DNA of 64,000 nt from Acidobacteriota bacterium. GTDB lineage: Bacteria > Acidobacteriota > Vicinamibacteria > Vicinamibacterales > UBA2999. Every line of letters begins with the position of its first letter. Positions within the stretch are counted from its first letter, which is position 1. The stretch lies in NCBI GenBank assembly GCA_040754955.1, contig JBFMCA010000007.1, positions 6,123-70,122 of the forward strand. Reading direction: 5' to 3'. Below are positions 8,492 to 14,742 of the stretch, one piece after another. The translations under genes and the position numbers were made by a program. The notes under the pieces were generated by a model. The model was given only the letters and a program-made list of their open reading frames with translations, was not told where the DNA came from and made no database searches.

Positions 8492-8897
8492 CAGCTCGTG
8501 GCGGAACGTCTCGCCGGGCCTGTCGCCACGGGCTGGCGAGGCCCGCTGCGGCATCTGTCAATTGATGTCAAGAACGCCCACCATAGACGATTGTTTCACA
8601 ACGAGGCATTGATGCCGATGCCTGCCCGGGTGAAATAGCCATCAAATATCAGAAAACAAAGAGTTAATAGGTTGTGGTCCGTTGCGACGCACGCCATCGT
8701 ATGTGTGTCGATTCGGATCATGCCTGTTAAACTACGTCCATTCATATATTTGTAGTCACCATGTGGCCAAGCTCCGGCGCGTGTCTGTCTTGAAACGGAT
8801 CAATGTGTCGCCCCTGGCACCCTCACGCAGGTGATCTATGTGTCCTATAAAGTGCTTTCAGTGAACACGATCGCGCATTCTCGCGTCGGGCCGTCCG
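8492..8897 (+). promoter_or_regulatory. AT-rich intergenic region of about 400 bp, probable regulatory region of the protease-GNAT cassette
   Basis: Marked drop in GC relative to the flanks, no convincing ORF, TGTGTC at 8704, 8804 and 8839. Confidence 0.55.
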
Positions 8898-11123
8898 ATG
8901 TGGCCGACGGATTGCTGTGCCTGCGGCGTGCGACCGAGTCCGCTCCCCGTCATCGCAGTCGTGCTGGTCCTCGTCGGGCTGGTGGCGGCCCCGGTAGCGG
9001 CTGGGTCCAACCACAGGATCGACAAAGCCCTCCGCGACGCGCTCCGGAACCAGAACACCGAGCAGAAGGTCATCGTTCGCGCAAAGGCCGGCTACCGGAA
9101 CTGGCTGCGGCAGGAGCTTCGCAAGCAGGGCAAGACAATTGAGTCCGAGCTCCCGAGCGTCGAGGCCCTCACGCTGAGCCTCGACTCGCGCAGCATTCTC
9201 GCCCTGTGCGCGAGCGCTGCCGTCGAGGGCTGCCATTCCGACGCCGAGGTGATGCCCACCGGGGCGGCCCCGCGCGTGTCCGCGCGGACGTCGGCGGACA
9301 AATCGTCGTCGCCCGCGAGGTCCGCCAGGACGCCGGCGAGGCTGCCGGCTGCCAAGGCGCCGGCGGTGAAGGAGGCGGCCGCCGGGAAGACCGCCAAGGC
9401 CCCGGCGTCGAAGACCGCGGCCGGTTCGCCGGCGCGGCTGAAGCGCCTGGCGCGTCGGACGGACGCCTACGCGAGCCACTACGTCAACACCATGCTGGGC
9501 TCCATCGGCGTCGAACCGAGCTTCGGCAACGGCGCCGGCGTGACGGTGGCGGTCATCGATTCCGGCATCGAGCCGAGCAACGCCTTCGTCGACGACAGCG
9601 GCCGCAGCCGCATCGTGGCGTTCTACGACTTCACCAAGGGCGGGGGGCGCACGCGGGCGTACGACGACTACGGGCACGGCACGCACGTCGCCGGCCTCAT
9701 CGGCGGCCGTCAGTACCTCGGCGACGTGCAGTTCGAGGGCGTGGCGCCGTCGGTGAACTTCGTCGTCGCCAAGGTGCTCGACCAGAACGGCCGCGGGAAG
9801 ACCAGCACGGTCATCCGCGCCATCGAGTTCCTCGTGGCCAACCACGTCAACGGCACGCGCCGGATTGACGTGATGAACCTCTCGCTCGGCCATCCCATCT
9901 TCGAGCCGGCAGCCACCGACCCGCTGGTGCAGGCCGTGGAGATGGCCGCGCGCGCCGGCATCGTCGTGGTCACGTCGGCCGGGAACTTCGGCCAGAACCC
10001 GGAGACCGGCGAGACCGGCTACGCCGGCATCACGTCGCCGGGCAACGCGCCGTCGGCGATCACGGTCGGCGCGTTCGATCACAAGGGCACCGTCGACAGG
10101 ATGGACGACCGCGTCGCGCCGTACAGCTCGCGCGGCCCGACGTGGTTCGACGGCTATGCGAAGCCCGACCTGGTCGCGCCCGGCCACTTCCTCGCGTCCG
10201 AGGCCGCGACGTCGAGCGCGCTGTACGCGGCGTACCCACAGCTTCGCAGGAAGGGGCCGACGGGCAAGACGTTCCTGCAGCTGAGCGGCACGAGCATGGC
10301 GGCCGGCGTCGCTACGGGCGTGGTGGCGCTCGTCAAGCAGGCCCAGCCGCGCGTGACGCCGAACCTGGCGAAGGGCATCCTGCAGTTCACGGCCATACCG
10401 CTCGCGACGGGCGAGGTCGACGCGCACGGCGTGCCCGTGTCGTACGACCTGCTGACGCAGGGCACGGGCGGTGTCAACGCCGAAGGCGCGGTGCGCCTGG
10501 CGATGAGCATCGACCCGTACCAGGGCGCCGGCCGGATCCCGGGTCCGTGGGTGACCGACCTCTGCCGCCGCGACGGGCTCGCGCCGACGGCCCAGGGCGC
10601 CTGCTCGACGGTCTATGCGGGCGTGCGGCACGCCTGGGCCGGCAACATCGTCTGGGGCGCGAACATCGTCTGGGGCGACTCGGTGTTCTACAACCTCCCG
10701 ATCTGGGGCCTCAACATCGTCTGGGGCGCCAACATCGTGTGGGGCATGGACGTGTTCGACGGCGCCAACATCGTCTGGGGCGCCACGCTCGACGAAGGCG
10801 ACAACATCGTCTGGGGCAACAACATCGTCTGGGGCAACAACATCGTCTGGGGGAACTCCTTCGACGACAACATCGTGTGGGGCAGCAACGTCGTCTGGGG
10901 GAACACCTTCCTCCGCTCGAAGGACCCCGCGCGCCCGCTGTTCTTCGACGACAACATCGTCTGGGGCAACTTCACGGACGACAACATCGTCTGGGGCAAC
11001 GTCTTCGACGACAACATCGTGTGGGGCAATCGCTCGCCGCGCGCCGACGGCGACGACAACCGCGGCCAGAGCTTCGACGACAACATCGTGTGGGGCATGC
11101 GCCTGAACGGAGGGCGCGAGTAA
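8898..11123 (+). CDS. Secreted S8 subtilisin-like serine protease with C-terminal NIVWG repeat tail (unit 1)
   Basis: Signal-like hydrophobic N-terminus; triad motifs VAVIDSG / HGTHVAG / GTSMA; oxyanion SAGN; 14 N[IV]VWG repeats. The start could instead be GTG 8928. Confidence 0.92.
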   Translation: MWPTDCCACGVRPSPLPVIAVVLVLVGLVAAPVAAGSNHRIDKALRDALRNQNTEQKVIVRAKAGYRNWLRQELRKQGKTIESELPSVEALTLSLDSRSILALCASAAVEGCHSDAEVMPTGAAPRVSARTSADKSSSPARSARTPARLPAAKAPAVKEAAAGKTAKAPASKTAAGSPARLKRLARRTDAYASHYVNTMLGSIGVEPSFGNGAGVTVAVIDSGIEPSNAFVDDSGRSRIVAFYDFTKGGGRTRAYDDYGHGTHVAGLIGGRQYLGDVQFEGVAPSVNFVVAKVLDQNGRGKTSTVIRAIEFLVANHVNGTRRIDVMNLSLGHPIFEPAATDPLVQAVEMAARAGIVVVTSAGNFGQNPETGETGYAGITSPGNAPSAITVGAFDHKGTVDRMDDRVAPYSSRGPTWFDGYAKPDLVAPGHFLASEAATSSALYAAYPQLRRKGPTGKTFLQLSGTSMAAGVATGVVALVKQAQPRVTPNLAKGILQFTAIPLATGEVDAHGVPVSYDLLTQGTGGVNAEGAVRLAMSIDPYQGAGRIPGPWVTDLCRRDGLAPTAQGACSTVYAGVRHAWAGNIVWGANIVWGDSVFYNLPIWGLNIVWGANIVWGMDVFDGANIVWGATLDEGDNIVWGNNIVWGNNIVWGNSFDDNIVWGSNVVWGNTFLRSKDPARPLFFDDNIVWGNFTDDNIVWGNVFDDNIVWGNRSPRADGDDNRGQSFDDNIVWGMRLNGGRE
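10644..11096 (+). repeat. Coding repeat array, 14x N(I/V)VWG (aac atc gts tgg ggs)
   Basis: Counted in the translation. In frame, with spacer lengths multiples of 3. Confidence 0.95.
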
Positions 11124-11785
11124 TGGAGAAGATGCCCTTCCGCGAGGCGCTCGAGACCACTCCGATCGCGACGACGGCAGAGGTGCCGTCGGTCGTCACG
11201 ACCGACTGGAAGACGGGCCTGCCCCTGCTGGCCGGCGCGGGATTCACGTTGCGTGAGTTGGAGCTCCGGGACGCGCCGTCGCTGCTCGCCATGCTCACCA
11301 CCGACGAAGTGGCTCGGTTCATCTCGCCGCCGCCGACCACCGTCGAGGGGTTCGAGCGGTTCATCCACTGGACCCGCCAGCAGCGCGAGGCGGGCCAGTA
11401 CGTCTGCTTCGGGGTCGTGCCGGCCGGCATGAGCGTGGCTATTGGGATCTTTCAGGTCCGGGCGCTCGAACCCGGGTTTGCCACGGCCGAATGGGGTTTC
11501 GCTTTAGGTTCGGCTTTCTGGGGGACCGGGCTGTTCGTAGAGGGTGCCCGCCTCGTCGTGGATTTCGCCATCGAGACGCTTGGCGTGCACCGGCTGGAGG
11601 CCAGGGCGGCCATCAGCAACGGTCGAGGTAACGGCGCACTGCGCAAAATTGGGGCGATTCAGGAAGGTGTTCTCCGGCGGTCATTTCTGCGAAAAGGGAG
11701 TTTTCAGGACCAGGCACTCTGGTCTATCCTTGACGAGGAATGGCGACTGGCGAAGGCCGTCTGGGGCCCGCGCGTCGTTCACTAA
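11123..11785 (+). CDS. GNAT N-acetyltransferase, RimJ/RimL-like (unit 1)
   Basis: ATG overlaps the protease stop (TAATG). MEKMPF...LRELELRDA, AEWGFALGSAFWGTG, NGRGNGALRKIGAIQEG. Confidence 0.9.
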   Translation: MEKMPFREALETTPIATTAEVPSVVTTDWKTGLPLLAGAGFTLRELELRDAPSLLAMLTTDEVARFISPPPTTVEGFERFIHWTRQQREAGQYVCFGVVPAGMSVAIGIFQVRALEPGFATAEWGFALGSAFWGTGLFVEGARLVVDFAIETLGVHRLEARAAISNGRGNGALRKIGAIQEGVLRRSFLRKGSFQDQALWSILDEEWRLAKAVWGPRVVH

Positions 11786-11805
11786 CCCCCCGTGTCGGTA
11801 GTCGT

Positions 11806-11852
11806 ACGGCTCGCAGCCTCCGGCTGACGGAGGCGGGGCCGTTGTGTTTTTT
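11806..11852 (+). terminator. Putative intrinsic terminator after unit 1
   Basis: gcctccg/cggaggc stem extended by acggc/gccgt, then a T6 run at 11847-11852. Confidence 0.55.
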
Positions 11853-11906
11853 CTCGCGGGCCGTGCGACCGGTCGCGAGTGTGGTCGTCAACCCTGGAGA
11901 CGCTGC

Positions 11907-13961
11907 ATGAATCCCACGCGGGCGGTGCGCCCCGCGGTCTTCGGGCTCGTACTCGGCTTGTGGCTCATTGCCCCGCCGGTCGCGGCCCAGACTGCCGATC
12001 ACGCACCACCAGGTACTGAGAAGCTCGACGCCGCGGTCCGTGAGGCGGTCGCCAGCGGACGCTCGTTCCGCGCCATCGTGCGACTGCGGTCTTCGGACGC
12101 CTCGTCGCGCGAGGAAGCCCGGCGCGCGGTGCGCGCCTTCGGTGGCAGGGTCGATCGCGAGCACGCGGTGATCCCCGCCCTCAACGCGGAGATCGACGCG
12201 GCAACGGCGATGGCCCTCGCCGCCAGTGACCGGGTTGCCGGCGTCTCGATCGACGCGGAGATCCGCGCGGGCAGCGTCGTGGGGTCCGCGCTGACGTCGG
12301 AGGCGAACTCGACCCGGTACCGCCAGGCAAGCGGACAGTCGGGGCAGGGCCGGCGGGGCATCACGGTCGCGATTGTCGACTCCGGCATTCAGCCCCACGC
12401 CGACCTGCCTGCGGAGCGGGTCCGGGCGTTCATCGATTTCGTCAACGGCCGGAGCGAACCCTACGACGACTTCGGGCACGGCACGCACGTGGCCGGCAGC
12501 GTGGCCGGGGCCGGCGGCATGGCGCCCGGCGTGGACATCGTCTCGCTGAAGGTGCTCAGTGGCACGGGCTCGGGCCGCACGAGCGACGTCATCGCCGCGC
12601 TCGAGTGGGTCGCCGCCAACCATCGCGCCTACAACATCCGCGTCGTCAACCTCTCGCTGGGCCACCCGGTGTACGAGCCGGCGGCGACCGATCCCCTCGT
12701 GCAGGCGGTCGAGGCGCTCTCGCGGCGCGGCATCGTCGTGGTGGCGTCGGCCGGCAACATGGGCATCGACCCGCGCACCAACCGCGTCGGCTACGGCGGC
12801 ATCACGGTGCCGGCCAACGCGCCGTCGGCGATTGCCGTCGGCGCCGTCGAGGACGCCGGCGGTCGGCGGTCGCAGGCGCGCGTGACGGACTACAGCTCGC
12901 GCGGGCCGACGCGGTTCGACCTGCTGGCCAAGCCCGAGGTCGTCGCCCGCGGCCACAACGTGGTGTCGCTCGGCGCCCCGGGCAGCTATCTCTACGAGAT
13001 GTACCCGGCGCTGCGCGCCGACGACGGCGGCAACCCGTACCTCAGGCTCTCCGGCACGAGCATGGCCGCGGCCATGGTGTCGGGAGCCGCGGCTCTGGTG
13101 CTCGAGAGCGACCAGCGGCTGTCGGCTGCCGCCGTCAAGGCCGTGGTGCAGTTCACGGCTCAGCGGCTGCCTCGGTACGACGTCCTGACGCAGGGCGCGG
13201 GCTACCTGAACGTCGCGGGCGCGCTGCGGGTTGCGCAGCTCATCGACCCGACCGTGCGGGTGCCCTTCTACTGGCTGAGCACGCGTCAGCTGCCGCTGCC
13301 ATACGACCTGTACGGGCGCGAGCGCGTCGCGTGGAGCAAGACCGTGCTCTGGGGCGATCGGCCGCTGCTCGGCGACTCCGTCTACTTCCACTTCGCCGCC
13401 TGGGACGACAACGTGGTGTGGGGCAATAACGTTGTCTGGGGGAACAACGTCGTCTGGGGCAACAACGTGGTGTGGGGGAACAACGTCGTCTGGGGCAACA
13501 ACGTCGTCTGGGGCAACTGCGTCGGCCGCGGCTGCGACAACGTCGTGTGGGGCAACGACGACGACAACGTGGTGTGGGGCAACCGCCGCGGCGACAACGT
13601 CGTGTGGGGCAACTTCGACAACGTCGTCTGGGGCAACAACGTCGTGTGGGGCAACAACGACGTGGTGCTCGGCACCTGGGCGGCCAACGTCGTCTGGGGC
13701 TTCTGGGACGACAACGTCGTGTGGGGCAACGTCACGCGCGACGCGGTCCGGACCGGCAACGTCGTCTGGGGCAACGATTGGCTCGACAACGTGGTCTGGG
13801 GGAACTGCGACAACGTGGTCTGGGGCAACGACGACAACGTGGTGTGGGGGAACAACGTCGTCTGGGGCAACTGCGACGGCGTGAACGGCGACAACGTGGT
13901 CTGGGGGAACAACGTCGTGTGGGGCAACAGCCTCGCCGTTCTCACAGGGGAGGTGCAGTGA
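11907..13961 (+). CDS. Secreted S8 subtilisin-like serine protease with C-terminal NVVWG repeat tail (unit 2)
   Basis: GGAGA RBS then MNPTRAVRPAVFGLVLGLWLIAPPVAA signal peptide; VAIVDSG / HGTHVAG / GTSMA; 20 NVVWG repeats. Confidence 0.92.
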   Translation: MNPTRAVRPAVFGLVLGLWLIAPPVAAQTADHAPPGTEKLDAAVREAVASGRSFRAIVRLRSSDASSREEARRAVRAFGGRVDREHAVIPALNAEIDAATAMALAASDRVAGVSIDAEIRAGSVVGSALTSEANSTRYRQASGQSGQGRRGITVAIVDSGIQPHADLPAERVRAFIDFVNGRSEPYDDFGHGTHVAGSVAGAGGMAPGVDIVSLKVLSGTGSGRTSDVIAALEWVAANHRAYNIRVVNLSLGHPVYEPAATDPLVQAVEALSRRGIVVVASAGNMGIDPRTNRVGYGGITVPANAPSAIAVGAVEDAGGRRSQARVTDYSSRGPTRFDLLAKPEVVARGHNVVSLGAPGSYLYEMYPALRADDGGNPYLRLSGTSMAAAMVSGAAALVLESDQRLSAAAVKAVVQFTAQRLPRYDVLTQGAGYLNVAGALRVAQLIDPTVRVPFYWLSTRQLPLPYDLYGRERVAWSKTVLWGDRPLLGDSVYFHFAAWDDNVVWGNNVVWGNNVVWGNNVVWGNNVVWGNNVVWGNCVGRGCDNVVWGNDDDNVVWGNRRGDNVVWGNFDNVVWGNNVVWGNNDVVLGTWAANVVWGFWDDNVVWGNVTRDAVRTGNVVWGNDWLDNVVWGNCDNVVWGNDDNVVWGNNVVWGNCDGVNGDNVVWGNNVVWGNSLAVLTGEVQ
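13410..13925 (+). repeat. Coding repeat array, 20x NVVWG, the first six as back-to-back 18-bp units
   Basis: Counted in the translation; synonymous codon variation between copies. Confidence 0.95.
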
Positions 13962-14677
13962 TGAGGAAGATGCACTCCCAGACCGAGTTGATGCGAGCCA
14001 CCACCATGGCGACCCCGACAACGGCCACGACGACCACGACGCCCGCGACGACGCCGGCTGTCGCCGCGCCTTCCGCGCCCGCCGCTCCGACCGCGCCCGA
14101 CTGGCGGCAGCGCCTGCCGATCCTCCGCGGCGAGGGCTTCACGCTCCGTGAGCTCCGCGTCGAGGACGCGCCCGCGCTGATGACCATGCTAACGACGCCC
14201 GAGGTGGCGCGGTTCATCTCGCCGCCGCCGACGAGCATCGAGGGCTTCGAGCGGTTCATCGAGTGGGTCGATCGCGAGCGCGAAGCCGGCAACTACGTGT
14301 GCTTCGCCGTCGTGCCCGACGGCGCGGAGGTGGCCATCGGCCTGTTCCAGGTCCGCACCCTCGAGCCGGGCTTCGGCACGGCCGAGTGGGGCTTCGCCCT
14401 CGGCTCGCCGTACTGGGGCCGGGGCGTTTTCACCGACGCCGCGCGCCTCGTGCTCGACTTCGCCTTCGAGGTCCTCGGCGTGCACCGGATGGAGGCCCGC
14501 GCCGCCGTCGCCAACGGGCGCGGCAACGGCGCGCTCCGCAAGCTCGGCGCCGTCCAGGAGGGCGTGCTGCGGCGCGCGTTCCTGCGACACGGCCAGTATC
14601 ACGACCAGGTCCTGTGGTCGATCCTCGCGGAAGACTGGCGCTTCCTGCGGCTCGATCGCCGGGTCCGGGTGCACTGA
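13961..14677 (+). CDS. GNAT N-acetyltransferase, RimJ/RimL-like (unit 2)
   Basis: ATG overlaps the protease stop (TGATG). Thr/Pro/Ala-rich N-terminus, then a clear paralog of the unit-1 GNAT (ARFISPPPT, AEWGFALGS, NGRGNGALRK). Confidence 0.9.
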   Translation: MRKMHSQTELMRATTMATPTTATTTTTPATTPAVAAPSAPAAPTAPDWRQRLPILRGEGFTLRELRVEDAPALMTMLTTPEVARFISPPPTSIEGFERFIEWVDREREAGNYVCFAVVPDGAEVAIGLFQVRTLEPGFGTAEWGFALGSPYWGRGVFTDAARLVLDFAFEVLGVHRMEARAAVANGRGNGALRKLGAVQEGVLRRAFLRHGQYHDQVLWSILAEDWRFLRLDRRVRVH

Positions 14678-14701
14678 GAGCGTCGTTAGTCACAGCACGT
14701 G

Positions 14702-14735
14702 GCCCGGGCACTCCCCAGGGTGCCCGGGCTTTTTT
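14702..14735 (+). terminator. Rho-independent terminator closing the protease-GNAT cassette
   Basis: gcccgggcac-N8-gtgcccgggc perfect 10-bp stem followed by TTTTTT. Confidence 0.88.
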
Positions 14736-14742
14736 GTGCCCG

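Follow-up and report, generated by a model that had tools for sequence, protein, structure and literature searches.

In the 64,000-nucleotide window analysed here, which comes from a genome of the acidobacterial order Vicinamibacterales (GCA_040754955.1, contig JBFMCA010000007.1, positions 6,123 to 70,122 of the forward strand), two consecutive units each encode a subtilisin-like (S8) protease, predicted to be secreted and tailed with repeats of the short motif N[IV]VWG, and a GCN5-related N-acetyltransferase (GNAT) whose start codon overlaps the protease stop. We find that this two-gene unit belongs to a larger module and that eight such tailed proteases are encoded in the genome, two points absent from the preliminary description of this DNA. 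What is established is the anatomy of the unit, its conserved gene order and the reuse of the tail motif as single copies in other genes. Judging from the sequences, we regard the chances as evenly poised that the protease releases motif peptides which act on membrane sensors of the MASE9 type and, after import, on the GNAT.

The preliminary description of the two cassettes was accurate as to their intact catalytic triads, their 14 and 20 motif cores and their stop/start overlaps. Both window proteases, with an Asp-His-Ser triad, an oxyanion Asn and a PF00082 match above cut-off, are members of Peptidase S8 (subtilases) with predicted activity; the first has 741 residues, the oxyanion motif SAGN and a Pfam Peptidase_S8 match with an E value of 2e-49, and the second has 684 residues. 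Each begins with a hydrophobic, signal-like stretch (Kyte-Doolittle maximum 3.1 in the first) that is missing from both GNATs, so that the partners are predicted to reside on opposite sides of the membrane. By chance, all six frames of the genome together should contain about 0.5 matches to N[IV]VWG. Within each set the core codons vary synonymously, the sole exception being one I/V change in unit 1. The units share 50% identity in their S8 cores and 71% in their GNATs, and by this measure the duplication is old. Four runs, each from a different study, yielded contigs that bridge the junctions of tail 1 with GNAT 1, of GNAT 1 with the second S8 and of tail 2 with GNAT 2, no single piece covering the whole two-unit stretch. 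As an aside, many GNATs, as seen at window 11123-11140 and at related GNAT starts, open with a conserved MEKMP[FY] that is followed by a variable Thr/Ala linker, and many tails end in Gly-Gly, whose codons double as the ribosome site of the GNAT.

The pairing extends well beyond this genome. Vicinamibacterales are abundant, mostly uncultured bacteria of soil and sediment. Among 151 genomes sampled from the order, 94 carry a GNAT of this family, which was found in none of 203 genomes outside it, where tailed-S8 relatives are found in 45. Named relatives are almost all from Acidobacteriota, many of them from Vicinamibacterales. Among the 30 best loci in the order, the tail lies directly upstream of the GNAT in 29 and the remaining one is at a contig edge. 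In 76 further loci, the best-scoring of at least 605, 99 of 104 GNAT matches stand behind a tail; the other five comprise two that lead a GNAT-S8-GNAT operon, two behind a small secreted protein and one at an edge. This adjacency, whose absence among homologues had been named beforehand as a reason to abandon the preliminary interpretation, is strongly conserved. The S8 clade of unit 2 is paired with a single GNAT clade in 17 of 18 cases. At loci L074 (4000-4760) and L121 (7600-8380), a small secreted beta-rich protein takes the place of the S8 ahead of a GNAT paralogue.

Seen from the protease side, across 30 loci, the next gene encodes this GNAT in 16, a MASE9-type sensor in six and another protein in five, and is cut off in three. 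The partner sensors match MASE9 (Pfam PF20972) above cut-off. The cassette lies between fabH and queA, in one or two copies, in 22 of the 76 loci and behind an Opp-type importer in 32, never both; an SBP_bac_5 importer flanks the cassette in these 32 loci and a sister S8 in 29 of 30. Among 40 hand-picked weaker GNAT matches, some sit between a tail and a sensor (L164, L165), and tandem sensor genes are followed by double-GNAT proteins, about 400 residues long and in one case frameshifted, which mostly lie directly behind MASE9-HD-GYP genes (L137-L145, L156, L159). In f53, a family of an acidobacterial lineage outside the class, a different GNAT of 303 residues (Acetyltransf_1/7, FR47) stands behind S8s with hexapeptide tails in 21 of 29 loci (22 were flagged, one falsely), and a MASE9-like match is present in 18 of the 29. 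Since this GNAT shows no BLAST similarity to that of the cassette (E 0.76), an unrelated family follows repeat-tailed S8s there, and GNATs have been recruited to the module at least twice. All counts leave out locus L352 (unpublished genome G714); the tally for f53 then stands at 46 of 60 genomes. Several S8s of f53 (L324, L326, L328, L332-L361) are apparently fused behind an AAA-like domain.

The tails hold four to 24 repeats with a fixed core and a spacing of mostly 6 to about 16; a fixed core thus recurs behind a predicted export signal, as in a multicore precursor. Enrichment next to the core is confined to Asp one position before it (61%) and Asn/Thr behind it. The flanks of tail cores are acidic in 71% of 1380 copies and those of the GNAT copies basic in 98% of 58. 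Single copies of the motif recur in several contexts. A micro-gene of eight or nine codons, M-x(0-2)-[LI]-I-[IV]-W-[GS], preceded by a ribosome site, lies between the S8 and a MASE9-HD-GYP gene in 13 of 15 loci, in none of nine loci without MASE9 (one cut just past the tail) and not in the one locus with MASE9 alone, five more loci being cut by contig ends. In eight loci the S8 is preceded by leader open reading frames (ORFs) with KAVWG at or near their end; we rejected KAVWG as a DNA or RNA element because its codons vary synonymously. GNAT 1 has a VWG-type copy at its end, as do 59 of 146 GNATs (30 of 44 in another count). The idea that KAVWG marks only GNATs preceding another S8 is unsupported: 21 of 39 GNATs with an S8 next carry it, as do 27 of 67 with other genes next and 7 of 27 with queA next. 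Lastly, K[AF][VIT]W[GA] stands directly ahead of the signal h-region in 14 of 116 S8s, partly of one clade; it was seen in 18 of 116 in frame versus 11 of 232 in other frames, and the count of 14 allows for two that are ordinary signal c-regions. Words similar to this n-region motif occur outside the order. A nine-residue peptide or the tail of a lasso peptide cannot form a solenoid alone, and the motif is therefore most simply read as a recognised ligand.

Other short ORFs occur after S8 stops. At L039 and L050 small ORFs carry KAVWG or RLVWG, and at L039 the next secreted protein has KFVWG ahead of its signal h-region. At L045, L046 and L059 an S8 with an H[IL]VWG tail is separated from its MASE9 sensor by a short ORF that begins MFLWT and has a ribosome site.

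The motif also appears at the end of lasso-type peptide precursors. On contig C168 of the same genome, a lasso-type cluster has a B2 peptidase scoring 68.8 bits, above the cut-off of 33, and a cyclase-like gene with an E value of 1e-46 yet below its cut-off. Its precursor, with a leader and core read from the sequence, ends in DNVVWGN plus one residue. Two related precursors, one from another genus (L194) and one a database protein (P0126), have the same leader and unrelated cores, and two or three residues follow DNIVWGN at their ends. The motif thus ends three of three related precursors, a sample in which the third was found by a profile containing the motif; the probability of the heptamer DN[IV]VWGN arising by chance anywhere in the genome is 2e-4. 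The cluster is found in 2 of 194 genomes of the family. The motif is absent from distant lasso precursors, and a metagenome scan of 80 loci for lasso relatives gave one close match with only 33 bases upstream and the motif in none.

Which role the GNAT could play depends on its active site. The protein passes the PF13302 cut-off and keeps the GxG coenzyme A loop and the Asn and Lys of the coenzyme A site, and on these grounds it has the Acetyltransf_3 fold; an ESM Atlas model (predicted template-modelling score 0.81) matches ordinary GNATs. Among solved structures, TTHA1799, YdaF and the PA3270/PacT group are closest to it, and MccE and RimL are further away. A catalytic pair has been proposed for RimL (S141/E160) and MccE (S553/E572) in PMC8072286. 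Across 264 sequences of the cassette family, the Ser position holds Gly in 249, Ala in 13 and Ser in two, and the Glu position Phe in 250, Leu in 13 and His in one, a mapping that assumes NF007539 positions to equal RimL numbering over a gap-free range. The NCBIfam RimL/RimJ equivalog models score 21-27 bits against cut-offs of 184-190, and all NCBIfam cut-offs are missed. The cassette GNAT is, by these residues and scores, not a RimL or an MccE; it may work by a different catalytic mechanism or serve as a binding protein. The same paper gives Ala at the catalytic Ser place of PA3270, and PA3270/PacT is reported to acetylate aminoacyl-tRNA (PMC9561280). With activity thus reported in the absence of the Ser, its loss from the cassette GNAT is no proof of lost activity.

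The mechanism that we favour starts with export of the protease, which is predicted, and removal of its prodomain. The tail would then be cleaved by the protease itself into numerous short peptides with N[IV]VWG at their ends; the placement of the single copies at or near C-termini makes a cut directly behind Trp-Gly probable. These peptides would be sensed by MASE9 membrane sensors, with a cyclic di-GMP or kinase output, and would likely be taken up through an Opp-type importer. In the cytoplasm the GNAT may bind, and possibly acetylate, the imported peptides, serving as an internal reader or quencher; as each tail region contains one lysine, a substrate from the tail would presumably need a free N-terminus, for which cleavage would be required. 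The basic-flanked single copies in the GNAT tail, the signal n-region and the micro-genes could act on the cytoplasmic side, as ligands of the same binding site or as motifs that dock to it. We infer secretion, self-cleavage, reception by MASE9, import and the reader or quencher role from sequence. The multicore peptide of the preliminary description, for which core repetition and an export signal are present, thereby gains comparative support from the micro-genes, the lasso precursors, the importer and MASE9. Perhaps these elements together make up an undescribed peptide language of Acidobacteriota, with a protease-borne multicopy signal, a MASE9 receptor, a GNAT reader that has lost the canonical catalytic pair and has a ligand copy of its own, micro-genes that supply the ligand inside the cell and lasso peptides that act as protease-proof mimics or jammers, but we hold this wider proposal only tentatively, with the balance somewhat against it.

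Several observations weigh against release of peptides as signals. No MASE9 or importer gene was seen beside the cassette in the window, such genes being on other contigs of the genome, and no importer ATPase was seen in the loci. The tails have no conserved cleavage motif besides the core. The micro-gene motif does not exactly follow that of the neighbouring tail, and distant GNATs, TTHA1799 among them, share the KA of KAVWG, so that KA is ancestral and only VWG is special. The trees of S8 and GNAT agree modestly (Spearman 0.31), as expected from linkage. The locus counts run over kin and not over independent events, and the choice of best-scoring loci and the small lasso sample noted above count on the same side. 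So do three properties of the tails that favour a fold: 11 of 15 and 13 of 21 of the Trp-Gly units follow a W-G-x-x-[STAVI] register that places Trp inward, f53 has Trp-free GV[LI][LIV][SG]D hexapeptide tails, and some segments are conserved by position within S8 clades.

It is possible, if doubtful on balance, that the tail stays attached as a hexapeptide-type beta-helix or an amyloid-like polymer that anchors or presents the protease, in which case the single copies would be capping or seeding strands and MASE9 or the GNAT would recognise a folded or nascent strand. Such a beta-solenoid had been offered as an alternative in the preliminary description, and the structural predictions divide on it. 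Besides the register and the conserved segments, the f53 tails fit the hexapeptide pattern, and an ESM Atlas model of the tail aligns with the SufBD beta-helix at a TM score of 0.61, which is under the bar for naming a fold, Hexapep being found in 19% of members of the cluster nearest to that model. AlphaFold2, run with an alignment, gives the S8 catalytic core a predicted local distance difference test (pLDDT) score above 90 and packs a short beta extension including the first Trp-Gly unit, but leaves the repeats below 50, and at 33 for the tail alone, without a confident fold; this is weak evidence, since repeat alignments are poor and the tail-alone run used one sequence. No Pfam hit falls on the tails. 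An attached helix would leave the importer, the nine-residue gene and the motif ends of the lasso precursors unexplained, and a folded tail and a store of peptides are not mutually exclusive.

The single copies directly upstream of S8 or MASE9 coding regions, and the position of the tail ahead of a translationally coupled GNAT, could also mean that the motif is a nascent-chain signal that pauses the ribosome and controls translation of the next gene, as in SecM and TnaC; in one clade, moreover, the S8 has the n-region motif when the preceding GNAT is without it. We think this improbable, as the motif is in only 21 of 39 GNATs before an S8, yet in 27 of 67 before unrelated genes, and pausing would need neither up to 24 copies nor lasso tails. 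We give a similarly low probability to the tail being a multicore antimicrobial precursor with the GNAT as an MccE-like immunity acetyltransferase. The strict two-gene coupling, the membership of the GNAT in the RimL/MccE clan (MccE 3r95, E 2.6e-8) and the motif at the end of lasso peptides, which are often antimicrobial, fit such a system. The analogy to MccE/RimL immunity or tailoring drawn in the preliminary description is weakened, however, by Gly and Phe in place of the Ser/Glu pair, which make MccE-type immunity unlikely; many tailed S8s are accompanied by a sensor instead of this GNAT, which is incompatible with an immunity role, and no tailoring enzymes were seen in the loci. Finally, the GNAT could be a passenger that acts on some unrelated substrate, with slippage maintaining the repeats as a linker of low information content. 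Four GNAT matches without an upstream tail agree with this, as does the third GNAT paralogue of the genome, which has no tail within the preceding 127 bases. Against it stand the 99 of 104 adjacencies, the second, independent recruitment of a GNAT, the synonymous variation of the cores and the single copies in separate genes, and we deem it very improbable.

Peptide release of the kind we favour would have a parallel in the Phr, PapR and SHP signalling of Bacillota, in which an exported precursor undergoes subtilisin-type processing to a short hydrophobic peptide that is imported through Opp. An Opp-type importer is likewise linked to the module, in 32 of 76 and in 29 of 30 loci, though not in the window's own locus. 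The module differs in that protease and presumed precursor are one protein, the latter in 4-24 copies, in its host, a Gram-negative acidobacterium, and in its partners, which are MASE9 sensors and a GNAT instead of an RRNPP regulator; no gene for an RRNPP (tetratricopeptide-repeat) receptor was recognised among the neighbour clusters, no profile search having been aimed at RRNPP. S8 proteases also mature peptides in cyanobactin (PatA/PatG) and lanthipeptide (LanP) pathways. The likeness to PatA/PatG that had been suggested does not carry far, with 26 and 43 bits against the TIGR03895 cut-off of 421, and unlike cyanobactin loci those of the module show no separate precursor or cyclodehydratase. 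The best solved relative of the catalytic domain and prodomain is a Tk-SP-like subtilase (PDB 3afg, E 2e-42), a match that stops at residue 436, and the repeat tail has no counterpart in any solved relative. The cassette GNAT shares the Acetyltransf_3 fold with RimL, MccE and the YdaF/TTHA1799/PacT proteins, but has Gly/Phe at the catalytic Ser/Glu positions. The left-handed hexapeptide beta-helix (Hexapep) shares the six-residue register with loops at one position, and the tail differs from it by its inward Trp, the missing Pfam hit and the lack of a confident model. The module resembles Phr/PapR-type signalling in the way it would work, yet it belongs neither there nor to the cyanobactin, RimL or MccE families. 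As the preliminary description had surmised, no account of an S8-tail/GNAT system was found in searches of the open-access literature.

If the proposal is true, the motif peptides would be a ligand class, and the first ligand, for an orphan sensor, since MASE9, which is shared by MASE9-HD-GYP and MASE9-GGDEF-EAL sensors and the partner sensors of the module, has no known ligand and is predicted to bind one within the membrane (bioRxiv 10.1101/2021.11.05.467447). The main text of that paper names no ligand and does not contain the word 'peptidase'; its supplements could mention neighbours. The system would also be a form of peptide signalling with enzyme and precursor in one protein, and would provide a target for motif-bearing lasso peptides.

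Table 1. Features of the two-unit array (window coordinates) and of two motif-bearing loci elsewhere in the genome.
Feature	Position	Strand	Remarks
Low-GC intergenic region ahead of unit 1	8492..8897		GC 0.54; likely promoter region
S8 protease 1	8898..11123	+	Signal-like N-terminus, prodomain, catalytic domain D221/H260/S466, repeat tail
Tail 1, 14 N[IV]VWG cores	10644..11096	+	Seen in sequence; spacers variable and mostly acidic
GNAT 1 (Acetyltransf_3, E 3e-22)	11123..11785	+	No signal peptide; start in S8 stop overlap TAATG
Single KAVWG copy of tail motif	11753..11767	+	Close to GNAT 1 C-terminus
Weak terminator-like hairpin between units	11806..11852	+	z -1.4, not above shuffles
S8 protease 2	11907..13961	+	Signal-like N-terminus, prodomain, D158/H191/S385, short folded beta extension, repeat tail
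Tail 2, 20 NVVWG cores	13410..13925	+	Seen in sequence
GNAT 2 (Acetyltransf_3)	13961..14677	+	No C-terminal motif; start in S8 stop overlap TGATG
Intrinsic terminator-like hairpin and U-run	14701..14737	+	Closes array; z -4.2
9-codon gene	L178:6798-6827 (own genome, contig C63)		Between tailed S8 and MASE9-HD-GYP-GAF gene
Lasso-type cluster	L177:1200-6464 (own genome, contig C168)		Behind LuxR-like regulator; B2, cyclase-like gene, permease

The array is flanked by genes that we take, from their sequences, to be fabH and queA. No sigma-70 match lies in the region ahead of unit 1, and there is no Rfam match. A terminator-like hairpin had been described for each unit; the one after unit 2 stands as the only hairpin clearly above chance, the one after unit 1 does not, and the terminator scan found two sites against 3.3 expected.

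Two of the eight tailed S8s of the genome are followed by a GNAT. Another, on contig C63, precedes the 9-codon gene, which encodes MSKLIIWGE, and a MASE9-HD-GYP-GAF sensor; an SBP_bac_5 importer there is divergently oriented. One more ends near a contig end. On C6 (L182, 22345-27302) an S8 with a four-copy NVVWG tail is divergent from a Ser/Thr kinase gene and has a ClpC-like gene next to it. A short ORF ending in KAVWGC on C49 (L183, near 16050, minus strand), with no S8 known nearby, may be due to chance, as about one KAVWG is expected per genome. On C22 (L179, 8134-18692) a membrane-sensor histidine kinase accompanies three tandem S8s with TIVWG/SIVWG tails, one of which is followed by another S8 and two by stand-alone membrane domains, one MASE9-like but below cut-off; without an output domain, these could be decoy or partner receptors.

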